Below are positions 25,047 through 26,450 of a stretch of 64,000 bases of DNA, piece after piece (position 1 is the stretch's first letter; each line of letters starts with the position of its first letter). The notes under the pieces are model-generated. The model saw only the letters and a program-made list of their open reading frames with translations. It had not been told where the DNA came from and ran no database searches. The translations under genes were made by a program, and so were the position numbers. The stretch is from Escherichia coli (GTDB lineage Bacteria > Pseudomonadota > Gammaproteobacteria > Enterobacterales > Enterobacteriaceae): NCBI RefSeq assembly GCF_003334315.1, contig NZ_QOWR01000005.1; one strand, given 5' to 3'.

Positions 25047-26450
25047 ATGAATCAACAGGATATTGAACAGGTGGTGAAAGCGGTACTGCTGAAAATGCAA
25101 AGCAGTGACACGCCGTCCGCCGCCGTTCATGAGATGGGCGTTTTCGCGTCCCTGGATGACGCCGTTGCGGCAGCCAAAGTCGCCCAGCAAGGGTTAAAAA
25201 GCGTGGCATTGCGCCAGTTAGCCATTGCTGCCATTCGTGAAGCAGGCGAAAAACACGCCAGAGATTTAGCGGAACTTGCCGTCAGTGAAACCGGCATGGG
25301 GCGCGTTGAAGATAAATTTGCAAAAAACGTCGCTCAGGCGCGCGGCACACCAGGCGTTGAGTGCCTCTCTCCGCAAGTGCTGACTGGCGACAACGGCCTG
25401 ACCCTAATTGAAAACGCACCCTGGGGCGTGGTGGCTTCGGTGACGCCTTCCACTAACCCGGCGGCAACCGTAATTAACAACGCCATCAGCCTGATTGCCG
25501 CGGGCAACAGCGTCATTTTTGCCCCGCATCCGGCGGCGAAAAAAGTCTCCCAGCGGGCGATTACGCTGCTCAACCAGGCGATTGTTGCCGCAGGTGGGCC
25601 GGAAAACTTACTGGTTACTGTGGCAAATCCGGATATCGAAACCGCGCAACGCTTGTTCAAGTTTCCGGGTATCGGCCTGCTGGTGGTAACCGGCGGCGAA
25701 GCGGTAGTAGAAGCGGCGCGTAAACACACCAATAAACGTCTGATTGCCGCAGGCGCTGGCAACCCGCCGGTAGTGGTGGATGAAACCGCCGACCTCGCCC
25801 GTGCCGCTCAGTCCATCGTCAAAGGCGCTTCTTTCGATAACAACATCATTTGTGCCGACGAAAAGGTACTGATTGTTGTTGATAGCGTAGCCGATGAACT
25901 GATGCGTCTGATGGAAGGCCAGCACGCGGTGAAACTGACCGCAGAACAGGCGCAGCAGCTGCAACCGGTGTTGCTGAAAAATATCGACGAGCGCGGAAAA
26001 GGCACCGTCAGCCGTGACTGGGTTGGTCGCGACGCAGGCAAAATCGCGGCGGCAATCGGCCTTAAAGTTCCGCAAGAAACGCGCCTGCTGTTTGTGGAAA
26101 CCACCGCAGAACATCCGTTTGCCGTGACTGAACTGATGATGCCGGTGTTGCCCGTCGTGCGCGTCGCCAACGTGGCGGATGCCATTGCGCTAGCGGTGAA
26201 ACTGGAAGGCGGTTGCCACCACACGGCGGCAATGCACTCGCGCAACATCGAAAACATGAACCAGATGGCGAATGCTATTGATACCAGCATTTTCGTTAAG
26301 AACGGACCGTGCATTGCCGGGCTGGGGCTGGGCGGGGAAGGCTGGACCACCATGACCATCACCACGCCAACCGGTGAAGGGGTAACCAGCGCGCGTACGT
26401 TTGTCCGTCTGCGTCGCTGTGTATTAGTCGATGCGTTTCGCATTGTTTAA
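25047..26450 (+). CDS. eutE: CoA-acylating acetaldehyde dehydrogenase EutE
   Basis: 467 aa; aldehyde dehydrogenase fold with catalytic Cys (NIICADEK); N-terminal amphipathic extension. Confidence 0.92.
   Translation: MNQQDIEQVVKAVLLKMQSSDTPSAAVHEMGVFASLDDAVAAAKVAQQGLKSVALRQLAIAAIREAGEKHARDLAELAVSETGMGRVEDKFAKNVAQARGTPGVECLSPQVLTGDNGLTLIENAPWGVVASVTPSTNPAATVINNAISLIAAGNSVIFAPHPAAKKVSQRAITLLNQAIVAAGGPENLLVTVANPDIETAQRLFKFPGIGLLVVTGGEAVVEAARKHTNKRLIAAGAGNPPVVVDETADLARAAQSIVKGASFDNNIICADEKVLIVVDSVADELMRLMEGQHAVKLTAEQAQQLQPVLLKNIDERGKGTVSRDWVGRDAGKIAAAIGLKVPQETRLLFVETTAEHPFAVTELMMPVLPVVRVANVADAIALAVKLEGGCHHTAAMHSRNIENMNQMANAIDTSIFVKNGPCIAGLGLGGEGWTTMTITTPTGEGVTSARTFVRLRRCVLVDAFRIV

Follow-up and report, generated by a model that had tools for sequence, protein, structure and literature searches.

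Among the genes of a 64,000-nucleotide stretch of Escherichia coli DNA (assembly GCF_003334315.1, contig NZ_QOWR01000005.1; here called the window) is a eut operon that encodes the aldehyde dehydrogenase EutE and the alcohol dehydrogenase EutG, and it raises the question of whether the N-terminal extensions of these two enzymes are encapsulation peptides that bring them into the lumen of the microcompartment. The first-pass annotation, made from the sequence alone, had proposed that EutE starts with an amphipathic helix patterned like the N-terminus of EutC, that EutG shows the same hydrophobic periodicity, and that the former, and possibly the latter, is targeted to the lumen; as a check it had named comparison with homologues that function outside microcompartments. 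We consider it probable that a combined explanation applies, with a canonical encapsulation peptide on EutE and a distinct, context-dependent helix on EutG.

The eut operon and the starts of eutE and eutG

The open reading frames (ORFs) of the window reveal an intact E. coli eut operon, for ethanolamine utilisation, at 20.9-35.8 kb, with the gene order eutS-P-Q-T-D-M-N-E-J-G-H-A-B-C-L-K-R. This region shares 99.9% identity with E. coli chromosomes, and 5410 of the 5426 complete genomes contain a match to it. The RefSeq annotation of the best-matching E. coli chromosome places eutE at window positions 25047-26450 and eutG at 27287-28474, and the peptide positions on which the original proposal was based (EutE from 25047, EutG from 27287) are right by sequence, ORFs and RefSeq alike. 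The N-terminus of EutE at 25047 reads MNQQDIEQVVKAVLLKMQSS, and the protein matches the NCBIfam profile NF011927 over residues 1-467 and Pfam PF00171 over residues 34-422. For eutG, the ORF list extends the frame in the 5' direction to a GTG at 27260; we assign the start to the ATG at 27287 and not to this upstream GTG because of the GGAGGGG at 27277-27283 and the RefSeq start. With this ATG, the first 11 nt of eutG coincide with the end of eutJ; the protein begins with MQNELQTALFQAFDTLNLQ and matches the NCBIfam EutG equivalog NF011998 over residues 1-395 (887.9 bits). The features discussed below are collected in Table 1.

Table 1. Positions in the window of the genes, peptides and sites considered in this analysis.
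Feature	Position	Strand	Basis
EutQ segment with contact residues I72, L76, F81, L89, V93	21990..22103	+	residues present; binding data from Salmonella
eutE CDS, CoA-acylating acetaldehyde dehydrogenase, 467 aa	25047..26450	+	ORF list; RefSeq start of 99.9% identical genome agrees
EutE residues 1-18, encapsulation-peptide helix (MNQQDIEQVVKAVLLKMQ)	25047..25100	+	EutC similarity, conservation, AlphaFold2, Salmonella deletion
EutE residues 19-30, flexible linker to the aldehyde dehydrogenase core	25101..25136	+	conservation, indels, low pLDDT
Ribosome-binding site GGAGGGG for eutG	27277..27283	+	read from sequence
eutG CDS, iron-dependent alcohol dehydrogenase, 395 aa	27287..28474	+	ORF, sequence, RefSeq annotation
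EutG residues 1-22, EUT1-specific helix, no linker, not an autonomous tag	27287..27352	+	profiles, conservation, AlphaFold2, literature
EutC residues 1-19, validated encapsulation peptide (comparator)	32611..32667	+	sequence; identical to EGFP-targeting peptide (PMC3299773)

The N-terminus of EutE has structural features of an encapsulation peptide

The comparator EutC peptide is strongly amphipathic (hydrophobic moment p <= 0.004 vs. shuffles) and lies ahead of the NCBIfam EutC profile, which begins only at residue 52. Comparison of residues 1-20 of EutE with residues 1-20 of EutC shows that 7 of the 20 residues are identical and that the ungapped, in-register BLOSUM62 score is 42, compared to 8.2 +/- 6.1 for shuffled peptides; the observed score was reached by 0 of 20,000 shuffles, so that the likeness that the first-pass annotation had noticed is borne out. 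The two peptides come from the same operon, have the same length and the same helix-plus-linker layout, and hold hydrophobic residues in common at I6, V10, V13 and M17. They differ in that EutC is more amphipathic, binds EutQ more tightly and has a longer linker.

Across 21 EutE orthologues, with identities down to 78%, residues 1-18 have a majority fraction of 0.79, and I6, E7, V9, V10 and V13 are invariant. The majority fraction falls to 0.33 in residues 19-30, where indels and length variation occur, and the conserved core restarts at GVFxxLDDAV (0.83-0.90). AlphaFold2, run on a shallow alignment (21 close orthologues; mean pLDDT 70.7), predicts a helix at residues 3-18, and residues 16-25 have a pLDDT below 50. 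The hydrophobic moment of EutE is 0.55 over the best stretch of 11 residues (p = 0.07 vs. shuffles, in a low-powered test) and 0.40 over 14 residues, with p values between 0.07 and 0.34 depending on the length of the stretch. Of the proposed amphipathic helix, then, the helix is predicted and the hydrophobic moment is marginal. Peptides this short leave the hydrophobic-moment statistic with little power, and we rejected it as a discriminator: EutC alone is set apart by it, and it fails for EutE and EutG as well as for further likely encapsulation peptides, so that we do not count its result as a negative one.

The extension of EutE is absent from AdhE and from other members of the family. The alignment of the cytosolic E. 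coli AdhE begins at EutE residues 40-42, corresponding to AdhE residue 15, and the alignments of the remaining cytosolic homologues begin at EutE residues 33-39. The NCBIfam profiles for AdhE, acetaldehyde dehydrogenase and SauS likewise begin at residues 33-39, and Pfam Aldedh begins at residue 34. Judged by the criteria for encapsulation peptides of Kinney 2012 and Aussignargues 2015, EutE has the N-terminal extension, the helix and the variable linker, and its gene shares a locus with genes for BMC shell proteins.

Proposed recruitment of EutE through EutQ

The use of EutE residues 1 to about 18 as a microcompartment targeting tag is already published. In Salmonella, EutE without residues 2-21 is dispersed in the cytosol and growth on ethanolamine is lost; by ITC and NMR, residues 1-20 of EutE and residues 1-20 of EutC both bind the region of helices H3/H4 in EutQ, and helices H1/H2 of EutQ bind the EutL/EutM shell (PMC12487888). 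A large-scale survey had also assigned an encapsulation peptide to the N-terminus of EUT1 aldehyde dehydrogenases (Aussignargues 2015; PMC4594438). The extension, helix, linker and BMC operon found here agree with these deletion and binding data, and the suggested targeting of EutE to the lumen is upheld. The possibility that the likeness between EutE and EutC is a coincidence of composition with no targeting role could draw on the hydrophobic moment of EutE, which alone falls short of significance, and on the 4-3-4 spacing of hydrophobic residues, found in about a quarter of the window's long ORFs, but the similarity score that none of the 20,000 shuffles matched, the key positions invariant in orthologues down to 78% overall identity, the helix-plus-linker layout that cytosolic homologues lack and, most directly, the Salmonella deletion and binding experiments contradict it, and we regard it as next to impossible.

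All of the functional data were obtained in Salmonella or in heterologous systems, not in this E. coli strain: the Salmonella literature supplies the phenotypes of localisation and the binding to EutQ. The present analysis supplies the extensions and how conserved they are, which of them has a linker, the predicted helices and the finding that non-microcompartment homologues lack the extensions. The EutE peptide of the window differs from that of Salmonella at 2 of 20 positions, and all of the published EutQ contact residues (I72, L76, F81, L89 and V93) are kept in the window's EutQ. We infer that the Salmonella results transfer to this E. coli operon and that the binding of cargo peptides by EutQ would carry over with them. 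Under the proposed mechanism, EutE residues from about 3 to 18 would be a canonical encapsulation peptide, a short helix in which I6, V10, V13 and M17 make up a hydrophobic face and which would be tethered to the enzyme through a flexible and variable linker (approximately residues 19-30). This helix would dock in the hydrophobic crevice of EutQ H3/H4, as does the near-identical pattern of EutC, and, with EutQ H1/H2 gripping the EutL/EutM shell, EutE would be drawn into the lumen. That EutE is recruited by such canonical docking on EutQ H3/H4, with EutQ as the bridge to the shell, we hold to be very likely.

The closest parallel outside the eut operon is PduP, a homologous CoA-acylating aldehyde dehydrogenase; PduP-type structures are the best PDB matches of EutE (E = 8e-118). 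An N-terminal targeting sequence on PduP, of the 1,2-propanediol microcompartment, was reportedly described by Fan et al. in 2010. In PduP, as in EutE, the enzyme is directed into the lumen by a helix at its N-terminus, about 18 residues long, together with a linker, and the peptide reportedly binds shell proteins. PduP differs from EutE in belonging to another microcompartment system and in its reported docking partner, shell proteins as opposed to the adaptor EutQ. [quoted passage not shown]

A separate observation concerns EutQ itself. Residues 1-45 of EutQ and residues 1-45 of EutT have an N-terminal module of about 45 residues in common, with an in-register BLOSUM62 score of 39, compared to -34 +/- 13 for shuffled sequences (z = 5.5), and a BLASTP E value of 3e-4. 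The similarity is also present in a distant operon (L002). The part of EutQ that is shared is the published shell-binding region, and the Pfam annotation of EutT covers residues 95-246 only. In the searchable literature that names both proteins, we found no discussion of this likeness.

The EutG extension is conserved like the core and has no linker

The N-terminus of EutG has none of the similarity that relates EutE to EutC: its BLOSUM62 scores against the EutC and EutE peptides are 2 and 0, equal to the shuffle mean. In 20 EutG orthologues, the majority fraction is 0.86 over residues 1-22, compared to 0.80-0.84 in the core, and L5, L9, A12 and D14 are invariant. Gaps were sought within the extension and at its join with the core in these 20 orthologues and none were found, so that no variable linker can be recognised. 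AlphaFold2 predicts a helix at residues 2-18 with a pLDDT of 80-86, and no segment of low confidence follows it. By the criteria applied to EutE, EutG thus has the extension and the helix of an encapsulation peptide and lacks the linker. Judged from the high pLDDT only, the helix probably lies against the enzyme or close beside it.

These properties bear on two alternatives to a helix that acts in cargo recruitment within its own context. The helix could be purely structural, as part of the core or of an oligomer interface, with any loss of incorporation arising indirectly through misfolding or a change of oligomeric state; the confident helix with no flexible segment, the conservation at the level of the core with L5, L9, A12 and D14 invariant, and the direct adjoining of the first strand of the iron-dependent alcohol dehydrogenase (Fe-ADH) fold, where the Pfam domain starts at residue 27, all speak for it. 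Alternatively, the N-terminus could be an autonomous canonical encapsulation peptide. The predicted helix and the 4-3-4 spacing of L5-L9-A12-L16 favour this, as does the hydrophobic moment over 14 residues, where EutG (0.49) does not fall below EutE, but there is no linker, the region is conserved like the core, sequence similarity to the EutC and EutE peptides is lacking, and the 4-3-4 spacing is common by chance.

The hydrophobic moment of EutG over 14 residues is not significant in this short-peptide test of low power (p = 0.12 vs. shuffles), and p ranges from 0.12 to 0.43 over the stretches tested (11, 14 and 18 residues). As to the hydrophobic periodicity that EutG was thought to share, the 4-3-4 spacing of EutC and EutE does recur, offset by a single residue and with one position occupied by Ala, but it is not distinctive: the pattern arises in 12% of shuffles of the EutG peptide. 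It is also found in 14 of the 52 long ORFs of the window, and we discarded 4-3-4 spacing as a motif too common to be informative.

Distribution of the EutG extension among iron-dependent alcohol dehydrogenases

As with EutE, the extension of EutG is missing from non-microcompartment homologues, by structures, by profiles and by a wider set of representatives. Alignments with solved Fe-ADHs begin at EutG residues 22-32, corresponding to target residues 4-14. In NCBIfam, the lactaldehyde reductase, L-threonine dehydrogenase, AdhE and glycerol dehydrogenase profiles match EutG only from residues 22-30 onward and are entered at profile positions 3-11 (position 457 for AdhE, in its alcohol dehydrogenase half), and Pfam Fe-ADH begins at EutG residue 27. 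Among 137 full-length representatives of Fe-ADH clusters at 50% identity, the number of residues ahead of the conserved glycine (Gly33 in EutG, preceded by 32 residues) has its mode at 13-17; at least 26 residues precede this anchor glycine in 15 of the 137 representatives, and 25 or fewer in the other 122. This absence is in keeping with an autonomous tag, and it weighs against a purely structural helix, since by far the most of the related Fe-ADHs fold without the extension.

The 120 listed homologues of EutG and EutE are all close enterobacterial orthologues; they served the analysis of conservation and not the contrast between enzymes inside and outside microcompartment loci, for which we turned to the gene neighbourhoods of the distant representatives. 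The only one of these with a visibly similar N-terminal sequence is P0124 (51% identity, MPATDLGQALYHAIDLFNAREVQTF), and its gene sits inside a complete EUT1 operon. Two further alcohol dehydrogenases with long N-termini, P0130 and P0163, are encoded in or beside microcompartment loci, and another (P0152) has a partial context without a shell gene. The neighbourhoods of two proteins with short N-termini (P0133 and P0143) are unrelated to microcompartments. Usable gene context was available for a small sample of three extension-bearing and two short-N-terminus proteins; P0126, P0129 and P0132 were left out of the comparison, their contigs being too short. The N-terminus of P0163 gave a weak match to EutQ (E = 0.19), for which we do not claim homology. 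On these sequence comparisons, the extension of about 20 residues is real and confined to EUT1-type EutG, and the small context sample agrees with the published survey (PMC4594438). That the extension is restricted to EUT1 microcompartment loci speaks for a role connected with the compartment, and thus against a purely structural one.

Experiments on the EutG extension

Tags on EutC and EutG were predicted by Fan 2010, as that work is cited in PMC4594438 and PMC3299773. Choudhary 2012 fused the 19-residue EutG peptide of E. coli K-12 (MQNELQTALFQAFDTLNLQ), which is identical to that of the window's EutG, to EGFP and observed no localisation to Eut microcompartments; residues 1-19 of EutC targeted EGFP in the same assay, and steric hindrance was raised as a possible reason for the failure of the EutG fusion (PMC3299773). 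In the 2015 survey, every EUT1 alcohol dehydrogenase except one carried the additional helix, some 20 residues long. Its authors rejected the helix as an encapsulation peptide on the grounds of a missing linker and 'no apparent amphipathicity', and suggested piggybacking instead (Aussignargues 2015; PMC4594438). A preprint by Yang et al. 2024 called the EutG extension an encapsulation peptide. In the published version (Yang 2025), the extension aids the incorporation of EutG and cannot target sfGFP alone, is described as being without canonical features, and is again linked to piggybacking; the localisation of EutG was found to be independent of the EutC and EutE peptides.

In this literature, it is accepted that EutG is targeted to the lumen, but not that it carries a canonical tag. 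The suggestion that EutG is possibly sent to the lumen by its N-terminus therefore stands in part: the extension aids incorporation, but the EGFP and sfGFP fusions failed, and the helix cannot serve as a transferable tag.

How the EutG helix may act

We infer how the EutG helix acts from the combination of these results. EutG residues 1-22 would be an element different from the EutE tag, an EUT1-specific helix with no linker and with conservation at the level of the core, and it would help EutG to enter the cargo core only on the folded enzyme, for example by contacting another cargo protein ('piggybacking'). That the helix is a context-dependent element touching a cargo partner has, in our judgement, close to an even chance of being correct. 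A more specific and more tentative reading is that it represents a second, non-canonical class of recruitment, in which the helix on the folded oligomer would bind EutE, EutQ or EutBC and microcompartment lineages would have gained differing N-terminal appendages. In this reading, the contacts could be made by EutG L5, L9, A12, D14 and L16, and P0130 and P0163 would be possible examples of lineage-specific N-terminal appendages.

A purely structural helix would account for the insufficiency of the extension for targeting of EGFP and sfGFP, but the role in incorporation reported by Yang 2025 adds to the evidence against it from distribution, and we consider it rather unlikely. The autonomous canonical peptide would require a technical cause for the failure of the GFP fusions, for instance steric hindrance of a peptide that has no linker. 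The steric hindrance suggested by Choudhary 2012 (PMC3299773) and the localisation of EutG independently of the EutC and EutE peptides (Yang 2025) lend it some support, but two independent reporter fusions, to EGFP and to sfGFP, failed, and neither Aussignargues 2015 nor Yang 2025 sees features of an encapsulation peptide, which makes it very improbable.

Returning to the context-dependent helix, EutG resembles PduQ in that both recycle NAD+ in the lumen without an autonomous tag. A complex between PduQ and PduP, and with it piggyback encapsulation of the alcohol dehydrogenase, is said to have been described by Cheng in 2012. EutG differs from the PduQ case in its extra conserved helix of about 20 residues, which is missing from most related Fe-ADHs and aids incorporation.

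Implications

The findings on EutE and on EutG are both already known. The EutE peptide is established. For EutG, a tag was predicted in 2010 and this very peptide was tested in 2012, and a survey in 2015 and a re-examination in 2025 followed; the window therefore adds only confirmation. Encapsulation peptides set which enzymes enter bacterial microcompartments and are also used to load engineered compartments. The window confirms that all of the published components, namely the peptides of EutE and EutC and the docking residues of EutQ, are retained in an intact E. coli operon, and the residual value of the finding lies in how the EutG helix works.

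Gene junctions in the eut operon

In the window, eutB directly follows eutA, so that the eut operon is uninterrupted. The eut operon of E. coli K-12 MG1655 carries the prophage CPZ-55; the window would then represent a strain with an intact eut operon. Farther upstream, eutJ and eutG overlap and the eutG ribosome-binding site is located within eutJ, which together suggest translational coupling of eutG to eutJ. Fusions of EutJ to EutG (~670 aa) are common among the predicted proteins in public databases, which also list 616-aa EutE-EutG fusions from E. coli without eutJ; these entries probably result from frameshifts, assembly errors or deletions.

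Coordinates of the features discussed
Feature	Location	Remark
EutQ residues 1-45	window 21807-21941	N-terminal module homologous to EutT
EutT residues 1-45	window 22493-22627	N-terminal module homologous to EutQ
EutQ/EutT modules in L002	4292-4426 and 4977-5111
EutQ residues 1-100	window 21807-22106	matches to other Eut models
eutJ/eutG overlap	window 27287-27297	eutG start 11 nt before eutJ stop codon
eutA-eutB junction	window 29814-32590	eutB directly after eutA
P0130	L007/L008 10001-11221	Fe-alcohol dehydrogenase
P0163	L009 10001-11368	Fe-alcohol dehydrogenase
Aldehyde dehydrogenase of eut-like locus	L009 17530-18984	minus strand

Terminal extensions in other microcompartment loci

Fe-alcohol dehydrogenases related to EutG that adjoin other microcompartment loci have differing N-terminal appendages. 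In P0130, a cluster representative encoded ~9 kb from genes for a BMC shell protein and a PduS-like protein, the core is preceded by MQNQSELNQIKEMVYDQVMEEAGLG. The representative of another cluster, P0163, has ~75 additional residues, including a Ser/Gln/Ala-rich stretch, shows weak similarity to the EutQ N-terminus (E = 0.19), and belongs to a locus that is eut-like and includes shell genes (L009). The aldehyde dehydrogenase of the same locus ends in a helix-like C-terminal tail (...TELDIEAITRMVIEKLKAL), in agreement with the published rule that the encapsulation peptide of non-EUT1 Eut loci is at the C-terminus (Aussignargues 2015, PMC4594438).

An N-terminal module common to EutQ and EutT

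EutQ and EutT have a homologous N-terminal module, which in EutT lies outside the Pfam coverage (residues 95-246 only). Comparison of MKKLITANDIREAHARGEQAMSVVLRASIITPEAREV to the N-terminal stretch of its partner in this pair shows 14 identical residues out of 37 (E = 3 × 10−4), and the in-register BLOSUM62 score of the two N-termini is 39, compared to -34 ± 13 for shuffles. The similarity is also present in the distant EUT1 operon L002, and no discussion of it was found in the searched literature naming both proteins. Positions 2-88 of NF007991, an NCBIfam sub-model for EutA, align with EutQ residues 6-88 (E = 5 × 10−7), and the C-terminal end of TIGR02536 (a 'eut_hyp' family) weakly matches EutQ residues 2-37 (E = 0.005), which suggests that the EutQ module recurs on other Eut proteins. 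Helices H1 and H2 of the EutQ N-terminus are, as published, its shell-binding part (PMC12487888), and because the module common to the two proteins corresponds to this region, EutT may share with EutQ its mode of docking on the shell.
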